In this document: in pieces, positions 15,001 to 48,000 of the stretch | Position numbering within the stretch: position 1 is the stretch's first letter | How the letters are laid out: every line of letters starts with the position of its first letter | Assembly: GCA_051439505.1 (NCBI GenBank) | Contig: JBFRWI010000162.1 | Location: forward strand, 1 to 50,560 | DNA: 50,560 nt | Source of the DNA: Hormoscilla sp. | GTDB lineage: Bacteria; Cyanobacteriota; Cyanobacteriia; Cyanobacteriales; Desertifilaceae | Direction: 5' to 3' | Program-made: the position numbers

Positions 15001-18000
15001 ACCCAAGTCCCCTGAGAGCCGTTGCATCTCCTCCACGCTTGCATAGTTTCGTCGCATTTACATAGCCGTCTTCCTGACGTTGGGGCACGGCCAGCCCATT
15101 AACTTCATGCATAATGCTGTTCAATCGTCAAGTCTCAGCCCTTCTTTCCCCTCTAAGATAGGCTGAATTATTTCTCTTTCGTAGGACAGGAGTGGTATTA
15201 ATTCCTGGGCTTTCTTCTTCTTTGCTTTTTTGTAGTGAATGCTGGCTTTTAGCAAACGCAACGGAATATTAAATTCCTGAATGTCAGATGTGAGTTCTTG
15301 CCAGACTGTAAACCATGATTCGGCAGCGAAGTCACTAACCATTTCTGATGTTAGCATAGGGATAGCATATACAAGTCCTACCCCTAAATTTGTTAGGGCC
15401 TGAAATTCATCGTAAATTGTGATAATGAAAGGAATATCTGAACGCCAAATCGCAATATCGTAACTTTCCTTAAATTGGTGGCGAAGGATTAATGCGGTAC
15501 TTTCTTTACATATGCTTTCTGCGGGATTATGTTCAAACGCTTCATATAAGGCTGAGATGCCTTTTTCCGAATTGCCTAGTCCAAAAAATGTAATAGCACG
15601 GATGACGAAGACATAAGGTATTTCACAGCCTAGCTCTATTGCTCGTTCACATGACTGTAAAGCTTTTTGATTACGCAAGAGCATCATTAATGCTCGTGAC
15701 TGCCAAAACCAAGCATCTGCATCAGTAGGTTTTAACTCAATAGCAGTATCGGCAGAAGTTAAAGCTTCTTCGTAACGTTCAAGAGCTAGTAAAATATAGC
15801 AGCGTAGAATCCAGATGTAGTGGACGTTATTCATTGCGGCAATAGAGTTGTCGCAGGCTGTTAAAGCCTTGTCATAAGATCTTTCTTCTATCAACTCACA
15901 AACCTTTTTGTACTGCCCCATCCAGTATTTAGCCTTGGCCTGGGCCCTCTGGTAGGGAGATAGCACTACTTCTATTCTCTTGATTCTATCTTCTTGATCT
16001 TCATCTCCTTGGTAAGTAAATGGAATTTTTCCTGGGCTCATGATTCTATTCCCTGATATGTTTCAGTCATTAAGTCTCAGTCCCCCAGTTGGCTGCTGGG
16101 GGGTATTCAATTATAGCCTACAGATGCAATTGAATTGCTTATAACCCTTCAGTCTTCTGGATCGTAATCACTTCGGAGTGAAACTTCTCTGTAATCTCCT
16201 TGAGTTTTTTGATTTCCATCAGGCAAGGATCATCGTATGAATAGTCGCCATCCATGGGGAACAAGGGGAGAATTGCAATTAGTTCTGTGATGGCGTACAG
16301 CCCATCTTTTAGGTCCTTGGGGGTTAAGGTTCGCCAATTGACAGCGTCGTCCATTACGGCGATCGCCAAAAGCCGTTTAGCAGCATCTCCATTCTCTACC
16401 CAAACATTGAACATTTTGTTGTGCTCCTATGATTTATTGAATTCTTCGTCGTTTTTGATGAGGATAGCATTATCCCATTCTTTATAATCACAATGGTCAC
16501 AGCCCCAGCCATACTTCGTAGAAACCATTGTTCCCTTTTCACAATGAGGGCAATAAACCTTGTCCCTTTCTTGACTCGACGAGATCGATCGCATTAGAGC
16601 GTAATGAAGTAGATCACGACCATTCCAATTAGCATATTGCAGCAGTTTGTTTTTCTTGCTCATGGTACAATTCCTCATAATCACTTATAGAGCCTAGGAG
16701 CTGATCCTCCGACTTCTCTTTTTTGTTGCCAGGCAGCCACCCCGGATTCCCCACAATACACAATTCCGACTTGCTGCGAGTTAAGGCTACGTACAACAAA
16801 TTCTCCTCTTGCTCCTCTTGCCACGGCTTGATCGATCTCCAGCTCATGGGCATGTCCTCTGGTCGATACAGAAAGATGCGATCGGCCTCTAATCCCTTTG
16901 CCCGATGGCAAGTGCAGAGAGTAACCAGTCCATCGCTGTTGTCCGAGAACAGGCCATGAATGTAGTTCTGCAACTCTTCAGTGCTTTTGGTCATAGGTAA
17001 AGCCTGGCAGATCGCAGAGATGGCAGCAATCTTATCCTTGAACAGTTCGATCAGTTGGTCAGCATTGTCCATCTGACGGTATTGCTCAATCTTCGCTGCC
17101 CGGTACATTTCTAGGGCTGACAAAAAGTGATCGAACGGAAATCCTAACTTGTCAACTTCTTTAATCACCTTACAGAGGGACTCCCCGATCGCCCGTCCTT
17201 TGACGATCGCCGGGACACCATCAGAGATCAGTTTGATGCAGAGGCTCACAAGGGGGGCGGTTTTGCGGCCAATTATCAAATCCTCTTTCGATAGCTCGGT
17301 TTTCCTAAGTTGATCTTCGTTAATTATAGTGATCATGCCCTCATGAGCACCCGGGGCTGGCTCGATCAGGATATGGGGGAAGATCTTGTTAACCAGTTCG
17401 ATATGCGATCGGGGGCACCGGTAACATAGCGAGAGAGGTAACTCCATACCGCCAATCCTGCGGAGGATTCTCTCGTAACTGTCAGAGTCGGCCCCTGCAA
17501 ATCCCATGATTGCCTGGCGAGGGTCGCCAACGAACATCATGCGGCCATTATCCCCCGCCAAAATGCAGCTCAATTCCAATTGAGTAGCGTTCAAGTCTTG
17601 GCATTCATCGACGAAAACAAACTGGTAAGGCTTGAAGATCCTGGAAGTTTTCCCTAGATTCCACTTGACAGGAAGCCAGATCATATCGGTGTAGTCAAAG
17701 CTCCTTTTTTCTATAGCCAGACGTTCTCCCTTTTTTAGGAGAGTTGAGATAGCAGAGGAGATTTCCTCAGTATAGTCAGGATCAATGTCAATGTCGAAAT
17801 GATTACAGAGATTCATTACTGACTCTTCGATGACTTTGACATTAGTCAATCTAACAAGATCTACCAACTTGACAAGACCTCTGGGACCATCTATAATTCC
17901 TTTGAAATCTTGGATTAACCGATTATGATAGATCCATCCGAAGTCCTTCATGATTTTTTTGTACTTACTGGCATTGACTAATCCCCGGGGCTTTAGGGAT

Positions 18001-45000: not shown

Positions 45001-48000
45001 CGAGTGACCTTAGAGGATCTGGACAACGAGAAGGTTGATGTTATCGTCTGGGATACTAGGGGTACGATTCCACACAACTTGAGTGTTGAAACAGTTATTT
45101 CAGCGAGAAGATTTTTGAAGCCTGATGGTTCTATTATTGCTAAGAAAGATTTTCTGTATTTAGCATTAGTAGAAGACTCTTCTTTTTGGGATAAGTTGGC
45201 TTCTCCTTGGGTTAATGGAGGGGTCCGAGAGGTTAATCTGACGAGTTGTCGAAATGCCTGTCTCGATCGATTTTATCAATGTTCGCTTGAGGGAAGGCAT
45301 CTGTTGTCGAAGCCAGTGTTGTTTCAGGAAATCGATTATGCGACAGTAGAACCTGGGTATGAGTTCAAAGGTTCAATGACTTTAGAGGTTGAGAAAAAAG
45401 CTCTTCTTCATGGGTTTGCCTTGTGGTTTAACTCCGAAATAGATGATGGGTTGTTTTTGTCAAATGAGCCTGGGGCAAAAGGGTCACGATTGTATAATCA
45501 AATGTTTTTTACTTTAAGGGAGCCGTGTTTTGTTTCTAAGGGTTATAAAGTGAACCTGAATATAAACACGTCTTTGTTTGAGTCGGAGAAAGGGATTATG
45601 GCGCGGGTGATTCGGAATGGCTCTATTGTGGATACAGATTCGCGATTGGTTATGACTTTCGACCAAGATGGATAATTAGTTGATCTGAGGACTAGCACAT
45701 TTAGCTAGTCCTTTCCCTTGAAATAATAAACAGACAAAATAGAGGACTTATCCCCATGGTGGATTTGACAACTGTTTCGATACTTGCTATTGAGTTTGGC
45801 TTGGGAGCCTTGGTTCTAAAGCACAATCATGTGATAGATAAGCAAACAGATGTTCTCTCAGAGATTGATGGAAAGCTAGATCGAGAGTTTCAGAGATTGG
45901 AAGTTAGGGTGAATAACCTGTTGCAAGAATTTGATCGGGACATTAAAGAATATGCAACTATTAGTCATCAAATGAATCAGAGCTTTAAAGAGGCTAAAAG
46001 AAATATCGAGGTTACTTTGTTAGGAGTAGAAAATAAAAATCAGATGGTTTTGTCTAAAATTTATGGGGTTTTAGAAGATCTGAAACGTATTAGTTTTAGT
46101 TTACTATCAGAACTTGACATTAGGAGAAATAAAGAGGGTGAGTCTAACACGGGATAAAGAGGACGAGCTTGTTCGGGCGCTGGTTGTTGATGATGAAAGA
46201 TTGACGAGAAAATTATATCAGTTGTACTTTCGCAAACTTAAATGGCTAGAATTTGAGTTCGCAGAGAATGGTGCGATCGCATTAGAGAAGATAAAAGGGA
46301 CTTCCGTTCCCTCTTTTAACGTTATTATTACCGACATCAACATGCCAGAGATGGATGGGATTGAGCTGTTACGGCGTATTGGGGAAGACAAAAGTAGTAG
46401 GATCCTTCCAATTGTTGTAACTGCTTATTGGGGGGAATATCAAGAGGGTATAAAAGAGGTAGGATTTTACCGGATCCTTCCGAAACCTATTGACTTTGAA
46501 CTGTTAGTCTTGGCGATTAAGCGTGGGTTGGTTCAGTATGACTTATTGAATAGGGACAATGGAGAAAGTTTGCGATCAAGCTGACTCGTCGTCAGTGTGC
46601 CTGGACAAACCGGATCAGAGAAAAATAGGTACGTCTATATTTTGTTTTGCCCCAGCATAGTGTCTATAAATTGTTTCTGGACTGTTGCCTACCAGTTTCG
46701 CGACATCCTTAATGTCCATCCCGCCTTCTAGACATATTGAGTTTAGGAGACTAATCATGAATCAAGCACATCAAAAAAAATCGCTAAACTTTTTACGGTC
46801 GTAGACCGTAAAAAGTTTAGCGATTGCGGCGGTTTTAGCTGTTTTAATGCCAACTAACTCAGCTCAGGCTGCAACCATAACCATTGGTTTTGATGAATTC
46901 AGCAACTTTGAAACTATCTCAGGTGATACTTTTATAGATTTAGGTGTTGTTTTTGACAACTCCTTAAGGATTTTCGATGGCAGTACCGGGGCATTGCCTC
47001 AATCTCAACCAAACACGGCAGCAAGGGCCGTTCCCTTTGCAGGAGATATTAGCGGGTTTTTCACAGAGACAGTTGATTTTATTTCAGTCTTTGCAGGGGA
47101 TGGGGTCCGAGATATCGATACTGTAACTCTTCTAGGGTTCGATGAATTTGACAACATTGTTGCTTCTGACACTTTTTCAGCAGTCACAGCACAGACTTTA
47201 TCCATCTCTGGTCCTGGGATCGCTCGGTTTGAGATTAACAATGTTGGACGGATTGCCATAGATGACTTTACCTTCAATACTAAATCAGTTCCTGAACCAG
47301 TTTCAGTTGTTGGTTTATTAGCCCTTGGTGCCGTTGGTGCAGGTTCGATGTTAAAGCGCAAGATGTTAAAGCGCAAATAGAATTACGGGCGTTGCACAAT
47401 AACGGGATGATGGGCATAGTTGCAAAAGTTTGAAACCTCGACTATAAGCCACGTTCAGTTATGTGCCAAAATGGCATCATCCCCAAAATGTGCAACGCCG
47501 AATTACGCTTTGTGGCATCAAATAAAAGATTCGTAACGGGCGCAGCTAGCGGTTGAGGGGCCGACGAAGATGTGTTGTTTCACGGAAGGAAGATTCGAGG
47601 TTTCAGCCTTTCCCCTCCAACTTCTGGATGCGCCTATATTGAGTCCCAATGGCGGATGAGTTCGGCCACAGACCAAGCTTGGGCAACGGTCCCCCTAGGG
47701 GCGTGGGGCCCATCCCCATCAAAAATCTCGGAAACCGAACCCATGCAAGCTTGCTGCTGAAAATGCTCCAGTAAGGGTTGCCAATTGAACGGAAGGGGTT
47801 CATCATAGAAGCGTTGCCAACTCCTGACAAAGGGACCGATTAGCCAACTCCAAACTGTACCCTGGTGGTATGCCCGATCGCGTTCTAGGCGCGAACCCCC
47901 GTAACGGCCAATATACTCGGGATCCTCTGGGGATAAGCTGCGCAAACCGTAAGGCGTCAGCAGGCGATCGCGTGCCACCTGTAGGATCCGACGTCCCTGT

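Follow-up and report, generated by a model that had tools for sequence, protein, structure and literature searches.

The window, that is, the whole stretch of 50,560 nucleotides that was analysed, carries a foreign island beside a tRNA gene, and on this island lies one gene whose product chains two DNA methylase domains to a radical-SAM domain. The features are given here by position and strand.

14671..14757, +, tRNA-Ser(UGA), left border
14760..46600, no strand, foreign island; borders approximate, from HIP1 depletion and GC, no repeat defining the right one
14763..15044, -, KilA-N fragment
16629..18275, -, UvrD-like helicase; two congeners have relatives of it that are broken or partial
18554..19132, -, separate gene whose product shares 74% identity with the C-terminal module of polyprotein P0274
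19664..20944, -, P-loop ATPase, hydrophobic at its N-terminus; HerA/TraD-like matches weak, under cut-off
21284..22264, -, actin-like partition protein, over the Pfam cut-off, with a 68% identical relic in congener G002
24548..25033, -, HTH repressor-like gene, where the two arms diverge
25032..25112, no strand, promoter-like sites arranged back to back (11/12 on +, 10/12 on -)
27277..30813, +, fusion gene, 1178 aa: C5 methylase, Dam-type methylase, radical SAM with the fold of spore photoproduct lyase (SPL, predicted), tail
27319..28359, +, cytosine-C5 methylase domain (aa 15-361) with its catalytic motifs, 57% identity to the P0274 C5 domain
27987..28131, +, stretch of 145 bases that a minority allele skips, inside the C5 domain (depth 67 in run contig X1, 53 in X2)
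28411..28917, +, N6 methylase domain of the phage Dam type (PF05869), aa 379-547, 45-52% identity to P0274 and P0275
28939..29892, +, radical-SAM domain, aa 555-872, CxxxCxxC 593-600, invariant Cys664, with Ser665 where SPL has Cys140
29929..30813, +, acidic tail of about 295 aa that starts at Met885 and includes a coiled-coil-like stretch
31579..36216, +, primase-like N-terminus and long region
36379..38256, +, collagen-like segment (common to phage tail fibres) and Laminin-G/ConA domain
38308..42195, +, three genes with a common paralogous orphan domain; one of them has DUF11 and 18-nt repeats as well
42195..44427, +, orphan 609-aa gene (hydrophobic, Gly-rich N-terminus) and 124-aa gene
44707..46584, +, right end, with genes for a PRMT-like methyltransferase, a small coiled-coil protein and a receiver-domain protein

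The fusion gene is a single open frame without internal stops. Its Pfam matches (DNA_methylase, aa 15-361, 8.3e-41, 140.9 bits against a cut-off of 22; Dam, aa 379-512, 3.5e-13, 50 bits against 28.1; Radical_SAM, aa 587-754, 1.7e-9) reproduce the coordinates and E-values of the triple fusion described in the genome-wide survey's note; the TIGR01712 score falls under that family's cut-off. C5 motifs I, IV (PPC), VI (ENV), VIII, IX and X all occur in order, the Dam motif NPPY lies at aa 447, and CxxxCxxC comprises Cys593, Cys597 and Cys600, as called with patterns that we take to be characteristic of these enzymes. Since radical-SAM homology continues until about aa 870, the unassigned tail is shorter than the 380 aa first proposed; it has no family match over cut-off. 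In every module, third codon positions are much more diverged than first and second positions. Judged by sequence, all three enzyme domains are intact within one frame.

Contigs assembled from public runs span all three junctions free of gaps, among the pieces listed (32 of 667): C5/Dam at 28243-28749 (X1), Dam/radical-SAM at 28720-29265 (X2) and radical-SAM/tail at 29803-30410 (X2). The four runs belong to a single study, possibly the source of the assembly, and their support is therefore not independent. The public-run matches listed for the gene include no holder of RNA. The minority allele, if a clean deletion, would shift the frame and stop at 265 aa; it may already break the frame upstream, which weighs against reading the gene as a functional polyprotein.

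The surrounding DNA had been described as a lower-GC island, and its GC is indeed lower (46.1%) than that of the flanks (49.0% and 50.0%; genome 48.2%), but the drop is slight. Depletion of HIP1 sites tells more and is the stronger sign of foreign DNA: the island has 7, against a minimum of 16 and a median of 32 in 97 equal genome blocks. Congeners diverge from the island sequence immediately after the tRNA, the flanks are not adjacent to each other in these genomes, and only broken relics of related elements are found there. An integrase and a duplicated tRNA 3′ end, as expected of a tRNA-integrated element (ICE or prophage), were not found: no att repeat occurs in the window or genome, no integrase in the window, and no match to PF00589 in the genome (93% complete), for which no genome-wide search aimed at serine recombinases was made, in agreement with what the survey had itself reported of integrase and direct repeats. 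Of the proposed integrative plasmid-like element, then, the foreign origin, the chromosomal position and a probable plasmid-type replicon stand, and the traces of integration were not recovered. The island is thus foreign DNA in the chromosome, phage-like in its layout and with a putative replicon of plasmid type.

Its open reading frames are long and uninterrupted. The long region of the 31579-36216 product shows only 21-26% identity to proteins of cyanobacterial plasmids (57 records, some named for a PriCT-2 domain), and the product is probably a replication protein. The three genes at 38308-42195 are possibly structural. No terminase, portal or major capsid gene gave a convincing PHROG or Pfam match. 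Most right-arm genes are orphans, of which neither the protein collection nor plasmids, viral contigs, 301-401 genomes or the Atlas contained a homologue; the one model made, from three sequences, was unusable (pLDDT 36, best Z 3.3). Promoter-like sites in the region number 13, against 12.9 by chance. The product of 18554-19132, which we presume to be ASCH-like from a motif only, has no Pfam match and reaches phrog_625 at E 6e-4, and the ASCH identity was not confirmed. Palindrome counts on the island reflect the host's avoidances and give no clear target motif.

The methylase part has a family of relatives, which the earlier reading had missed. The closest, P0274, is arranged as C5 (57%), D12, Dam (45%) and a C-terminal module, the latter being the one with a separate counterpart on the island. 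P0275 and the 1346-aa L188 combine D12 and Dam, P0279-81 combine ASCH and Dam, L060 has C5, ASCH and Dam, and P0283 joins a PAPS-reductase to C5. Members chain C5, D12, Dam and ASCH modules in varying order, and the fusion gene is one permutation within this family of shuffled methylase polyproteins of cyanobacterial mobile elements.

The joining of these methylases to a radical-SAM domain was found in one element only, and to this extent the claimed uniqueness holds. No methylase fusion, with Dam or otherwise, occurred among the 120 best of 641 radical-SAM hits (281-896 aa), in 32 long representatives scanned of 150 listed (which carried AAA_25, LAGLIDADG and DUF123 fusions instead), in 69 genome loci or in 79 viral loci (ORFs of 171-362 aa), and none of 16 loci with Dam relatives held a radical-SAM gene. 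The literature searched, supplements (where architectures may be listed) lying outside its scope, describes no radical-SAM/DNA-methylase fusion; the accessible parts of PMC10853773, PMC12704722, PMC9477430, 10.1101/2025.09.30.679545 and 10.64898/2026.10.19.760177 contain no description of such a system, and Ophion, in the portion available, belongs to a different radical-SAM family (10.1101/2025.09.30.679545).

The radical-SAM domain itself is well preserved. Met555 lies 4 residues ahead of the start used in 59/70 stand-alone homologues, and 141 of 145 near-invariant positions are retained (stand-alone copies deviate at a median of 2, range 0-11), although this conservation may predate the fusion. 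Its CxxxCxxC motif, together with a partial barrel in the model, places it in the radical SAM superfamily. SPL is the best sequence-profile match (E 2e-8) and fills the top six Foldseek rows (TM 0.52-0.59, identity 13-16%), so that the SPL-like overall fold proposed earlier is supported here. Viral contigs hold no close relatives, and annotated phages yield 7 distant records only, Acidianus two-tailed viruses first. In a quick tree with long outgroups, from which 14 short, broken or intein-bearing ORFs were excluded, the fused copy fell outside the main clade of 51 rows (support 95), but a 31-row rebuild did not resolve it, and the trees give no origin for this copy. The literature searched reports no activity or substrate for the family.

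Stand-alone members have a regular methyltransferase-fold neighbour of another kind, which the survey had also overlooked. TcmP lies directly upstream in 62/69 cyanobacterial loci, and in 79 viral loci a small Trm1-like protein is found within 1.5 kb in 31 and a ParB-like neighbour in 37. Kinship of TcmP and the Trm1-like partner is not supported (hhalign probability 3.8%). Neither profile matches any island ORF of at least 70 aa, nor does the NCBIfam TcmP model match any of 25 island proteins, and the fused enzyme may thus lack its co-worker; the host's one TcmP is on a different contig, with a PDC-M30B/M41B-type partner. Taken with the permuted polyproteins, this association means that a radical-SAM domain beside a methylase recurs, which makes the fusion itself less special and an action of the enzyme on DNA more likely.

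On balance, somewhat better than evenly, we favour the view that the gene encodes an anti-restriction polyprotein for DNA modification that belongs to an integrated cyanobacterial mobile element and has captured a radical-SAM enzyme as an extra module. The C5 and Dam domains would each methylate their own motif on element DNA and shield it from host restriction, presumably when the rightward operon (methylase, then primase-helicase) is turned on. Self-protection by the methylases, as suggested before, is supported as a reading. The radical-SAM gene may have entered the cassette and been joined through stop-codon loss like other modules, its start Met kept at the junction. The most likely activity of its family is radical chemistry on a nucleobase that is probably methylated; in this element the enzyme would serve as an additional protective module, co-expressed and carried to DNA, with no implied dependence on the fused methylases.

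The idea that the two methylations are coupled to a radical step, which the survey's note had put forward, draws nothing beyond the fusion itself in its favour. Its more specific form, that Dam (or C5) replaced TcmP as methyl donor and that the radical-SAM enzyme abstracts hydrogen from the new 6mA or 5mC methyl group to build a larger modification, is rather unlikely. It would agree with the regular pairing described above and the want of another such partner on the island, with the invariance of Cys664 in 70/70 close homologues, and with L060, where a TcmP/radical-SAM pair directly follows the C5-ASCH-Dam gene in a prophage-like module. In P0275, a 23-residue stretch after D12, chosen by eye and without a profile match, resembles the radical-SAM N-terminus (13 identical; 1/2000 shuffles), a hint of an earlier join of this kind. 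However, the occurrence is single, the best radical-SAM hits include no Dam fusion, TcmP and Dam are different methyltransferase families whose targets probably differ, and, because the sister polyproteins shuffle modules freely, adjacency of methylase and radical SAM carries little weight. Equally doubtful is the broader proposal that the SPL-fold family renders a DNA base methylated by TcmP or the Trm1-like protein hypermodified and has here been rewired to Dam/C5 in one chain, which would make a single protein a sequence-specific source of a new DNA base, possibly in a new kind of integrated cyanobacterial virus.

A recent, selectively neutral run-on fusion in a decaying element, with the radical-SAM domain idle for want of its partner, is unlikely. 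The missing integrase and att repeat, the broken relics in congeners and the minority skip within the C5 domain all fit decay, but three consecutive in-frame junctions, intact catalytic motifs throughout, the unbroken island ORFs and the normality of multi-module chains in this methylase family argue otherwise. Very unlikely is a DNA-repair lyase like SPL that would guard the element from UV or desiccation damage, despite the fold, the retained Tyr after the third cysteine and the database label 'DNA repair photolyase'. Identity to SPL is only 13-16%. The H-donor Cys140 of SPL, three residues before a conserved Asp, is replaced in register by Ser665, and Ser is no substitute for Cys140 in SPL according to the available text of PMC3467042; SPL's alpha/beta domain at the N-terminus is absent, the cluster motif starting at domain residue 39 rather than 90. 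The repair activity proposed earlier is therefore improbable, and the conserved methyltransferase-fold neighbour presumably has no repair role, although Cys664, one residue ahead of that register, could be a shifted donor and keeps a repair reading alive. An assembly artefact joining separate genes is extremely improbable and largely refuted, since independently assembled run contigs span each junction at depths >120 with no indel listed, even though there is a single assembly and every supporting run comes from the same study.

Only a small number of radical-SAM enzymes are known to work on DNA; the accessible part of PMC8989533 names SPL and phage M6 gp53. The present family is common in cyanobacteria and occurs more distantly in phage packaging loci, nearly always adjoining a methyltransferase-fold gene. 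The fusion chains it to two methylases of well-understood chemistry, so that one gene and a few point mutants could test for modification of methylated DNA, making it a handy test case. If the enzyme modifies methylated DNA, a widespread defence-candidate cassette would be explained and one DNA base added; otherwise, the gene represents a minor permutation among anti-restriction polyproteins.

Among known systems, SPL (PDB 4fhc-4fhg; PMC3467042, in part) is the nearest solved fold; its long C-terminal, lesion-flipping beta-hairpin (Arg-Tyr) is missing from the strand list of the model, a secondary-structure list only. The nearest named families, PA0069 (NF033668), Rv2578c and 'radical SAM mobile pair B' of NCBIfam, are all uncharacterised, and scores far under their cut-offs (84, 51 and 38 bits against 360, 430 and 410; for PA0069, 83.9 exactly, and 90.2 for a stand-alone homologue) point to a separate subfamily. 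In the available text of PMC8989533, M6 gp53 is an SPL-like isomerase that installs a DNA modification after a priming enzyme and so offers a precedent for coupling, but it acts on glycyl-thymidine with a kinase, a transferase and a PLP enzyme, none recognised on the island, and is not fused to methylases. TcmP (TIGR04474) next to the stand-alone radical-SAM form is of the PDC-M30A/M41A type; the PADLOC candidates PDC-M30 and PDC-M41 pair TcmP with DUF5131, the fused enzyme does not match PDC-M30B/M41B, and the island differs from such cassettes in having no adjacent TcmP gene. The literature searched, supplements again outside its scope, does not describe a function for the TcmP/radical-SAM pair. 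Multi-domain DNA methylases of cyanobacterial and phage elements likewise chain phage-type Dam and C5 with other modules in changing order within mobile elements, yet none of the relatives found has a radical-SAM domain. The portion of PMC4738411 available describes Dam-ASCH fusions of cyanobacteria as well as ParB-terminase methylase loci of phages; the latter differ, as no ParB or terminase was recognised on the island. Polyvalent proteins of phages and conjugative elements also accrete solo modules, methylases included, into one mobile-element chain (PMC5512222, whose main text, as available, does not contain 'radical SAM'), but their hallmark metallopeptidase, ArdC and SNF2 domains were not detected here. 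Set beside these systems, the fusion protein is, so far, a unique variant of what would be a mix-and-match protein for DNA protection.

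The fusion gene is a single open frame (27277-30813, plus strand) that encodes 1178 aa, and three Pfam domains score over cut-off along it:

aa 15-361, plus strand, C5 methylase domain
aa 379-512, plus strand, Dam-family methylase domain
aa 587-754, plus strand, radical-SAM domain

The expected motifs also occur: I, IV, VI, VIII, IX and X in the C5 domain, NPPY in the Dam domain, and CxxxCxxC. Radical-SAM homology extends to about aa 870, so the 380-aa tail of the genome-wide survey's note was too long; the tail begins at Met885, spans about 295 aa and has no assigned family.

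When aa 1-555 were compared with proteins of 647-2062 aa, 11 matches were obtained, the fusion protein itself included. The top match, the sister polyprotein P0274 (1104 aa, contig L187), has the order C5 (57% identical), D12, Dam (45%) and a C-terminal module, the last 74% identical to a separate island gene (18554-19132). The architecture changes among other relatives, indicating that modules come, go and change order in this slot:

P0275, D12 and Dam
L188 protein (1346 aa), D12 and Dam
P0279-81, ASCH and Dam
P0283, PAPS-reductase and C5
L060 protein, C5, ASCH and Dam

L187, L188 and the contig of P0275 are short. Most stand-alone radical-SAM homologues (59 of 70) share a start four residues downstream of Met555 of the fusion, and the last module of P0274 opens at the Met with which the separate island gene begins; both fit a history in which neighbouring genes would have been joined through lost stop codons. 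Both cyanobacterial Dam-ASCH fusions and methylases located at ParB-terminase loci of phages are on record (PMC4738411, in part), and solo modules accrete on mobile elements (PMC5512222, in part). In X1, one of the public sequencing runs, a contig departs from the island at 19078 with a loose end that by eye reads as the corresponding peptide of P0274; from this a sister element may share the sample, and none was found in the assembled genome.

The island is foreign, since it contains 7 HIP1 sites where none of 97 equal genome blocks has fewer than 16, has lower GC (46.1% vs 48.2%), and lies where four congeners part from this genome, right after the end of tRNA-Ser, and carry other genes. These comparisons support the foreignness of what the survey had called an integrative plasmid-like island. 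Several host restriction-site avoidances are common to the island, which would fit a long residence in this lineage, and congeners hold scattered, partly broken relics of related elements, one beside tRNA-Thr. Neither a tRNA repeat nor a tyrosine integrase was found in the window or genome; PF00589 had 0 matches in this 93%-complete genome and was present in all 14 control genomes. Short GAGTAT-type repeats, possibly recombinase arm sites, follow tRNA-Ser here (14760-14815); four congeners (L013-L016) show another version of them. The two arms point away from a repressor-like gene that carries promoter-like sites in back-to-back arrangement, the region's total of such sites being at chance level:

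left arm: actin-like partition gene, ATPase, UvrD
right arm: fusion gene, primase-like replication protein, tail-fibre-like gene, several orphans

The primase-like protein is distant kin of cyanobacterial plasmid proteins (57 records), and our reading of the island is an integrated element, plasmid-like or phage-plasmid-like, that belongs to an undescribed group. Three adjacent genes (38308-42195) beside the tail-fibre-like gene share an orphan domain that is largely beta (identity 33% and below); their products may be virion proteins from a kind of virus not yet known. Small paralogous genes at 23103-24199 hold a 91-base repeat (71% alike, 372 apart), and a relic of one adjoins the partition gene in a congener (G002). 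The right end (44707-46584) holds a receiver-domain gene and a gene for a PRMT-like methyltransferase, the latter 32% identical to a host paralogue (C80); these are either island cargo or host genes. Beyond the likely right border, a PEP-CTERM-like gene is closely preceded by a perfect 22-base inverted repeat (46779-46825).

Orphan methylases on mobile elements have an established role in protection against restriction. Starting from domain content, intact motifs, fold and the neighbours of homologues, all shown by the analysis, we lean, with moderate confidence, to a reading in which the C5 and Dam methylases would mark the element's DNA against restriction, the radical-SAM domain would perform base chemistry on DNA, and the fusion would chiefly ensure co-expression and delivery. 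Such chemistry is suggested by the spore photoproduct lyase (SPL) fold, steady methyltransferase-fold partners and packaging/methylase loci. The radical-SAM model has a pLDDT of 95.4, and its six top structure matches (TM 0.52-0.59, 13-16% identity) and top profile matches are SPL. In NCBIfam it stays far short of the score thresholds set for PA0069, Rv2578c and mobile-pair B. The domain has the SPL fold yet is not classed as SPL, and the survey's "SPL-like" stands in that sense. Some stand-alone homologues (L066, L068, L090, L091, L092; 485-706 aa) carry an insert just past the cluster motif region, and P0002 and P0040 a LAGLIDADG intein-like insert. Distant members (P0018, P0022, P0021, P0025, P0060) bear other C-terminal domains (AAA_25 twice, DUF123 and, by eye, ParB-like), so the family fuses readily.

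A gene of the TcmP clusters (methyltransferase fold) lies within 1.5 kb upstream of the close homologue at 62 of 69 genome loci, in line at 36 of them and divergent at 26; clusters were defined by BLAST, and the single representative checked from each belonged to TIGR04474 and to PADLOC candidate PDC-M30A or PDC-M41A. Among the seven loci without it, a contig end truncates one, and the ORFs of two others suggest prophages. At L060 the TcmP/radical-SAM pair directly follows the C5-ASCH-Dam gene and adjoins DnaB-like and repressor-like genes (both read by eye). In 79 viral loci with distant homologues, taken from the best 80 of at least 255, a ParB-like neighbour occurs in 37, a terminase in several, and a small protein within 1.5 kb in 31; the best match of that protein's profile, built from 19 viral-locus proteins plus an L088 member, is to Trm1, a tRNA guanine methylase (E 4e-5). 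In many phages (L117-L186) members of this unnamed, Trm1-like methyltransferase family are flanked by a ParB-like and an SPL-like radical-SAM gene, with terminases nearby; L088:11545-12309 is a further member, and two members scanned had no Pfam family over cut-off. Kinship of the viral protein with TcmP was looked for and not established. These partners bear on a coupled pathway in which Dam or C5 would substitute for TcmP, which we consider possible though doubtful. A precedent is phage M6 gp53, which is SPL-like and installs a modification on DNA (PMC8989533, in part). Neither TcmP nor Trm1-like profiles matched an island ORF, and the host's only TcmP lies on a different contig with a PDC-M30B/M41B-type partner.

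That the fusion is a neutral accident seems to us rather unlikely. The fused domain keeps 141 of 145 near-invariant positions of 70 close homologues, which themselves deviate at 0-11 (median 2), and codon positions 1 and 2 are far better kept than position 3 in every module; this pattern shows purifying selection in the past, not selection on the fusion. No further methylase/radical-SAM fusion occurred among 120 listed of 641 matches, in 32 long representatives, or in the 69 genome and 79 viral loci, and 16 loci with Dam relatives had no radical-SAM match, in keeping, within these sets, with the survey's claim that the fusion occurs only here. In P0275, a 23-residue stretch behind the D12 domain agrees with the radical-SAM N-terminus at 13 positions, a level reached by 1 of 2000 shuffles; the stretch, picked by eye and without a profile match, hints at a trace of an earlier join.

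A repair role for the radical-SAM domain is quite improbable. Ser665 lines up with the position altered in the C140S and C140A SPL chains (counted back from the invariant Asp in a profile of 38 mostly viral sequences), and Cys664, one residue before, is invariant in 70 of 70 close homologues. Cys140 is the hydrogen donor of SPL, and Ser does not restore activity; SPL further carries an N-terminal domain and a lesion-flipping hairpin (PMC3467042, in part), of which the former is absent from the fused part and the latter is not visible in the model.

An assembly artefact is scarcely credible. Contigs of four public runs, all from one study, cover the region, and among the 32 of 667 pieces listed, X1 28243-28749 spans the first junction, and X2 28720-29265 and 29803-30410 the remaining two, without gaps; these contigs, with Pfam and motifs, uphold the survey's single frame of C5 methylase, Dam and radical SAM. 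Summed depth is level from host flank into island in both deep runs. The assembly may itself derive from these runs; their contigs therefore rule out a mis-join, not rarity. A minority joint omits 27987-28131, with depths of 67 in X1 and 53 in X2; these 145 bases lie in the variable stretch of the C5 domain, the one for target recognition. A clean deletion would shift the frame and end the protein at 265 aa, and the allele (27986-28132) is either such a deletion or a swapped segment.

A literature search, mostly of open-access main texts, returned no account of a radical-SAM/DNA-methylase fusion and no reported activity for the TcmP/radical-SAM pair. The main value of the fusion is as a way to test a radical-SAM enzyme family that is widespread and uncharacterised. 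Its architecture is new within the collections searched, though as a chain it is a single variant of the known multi-methylase proteins.
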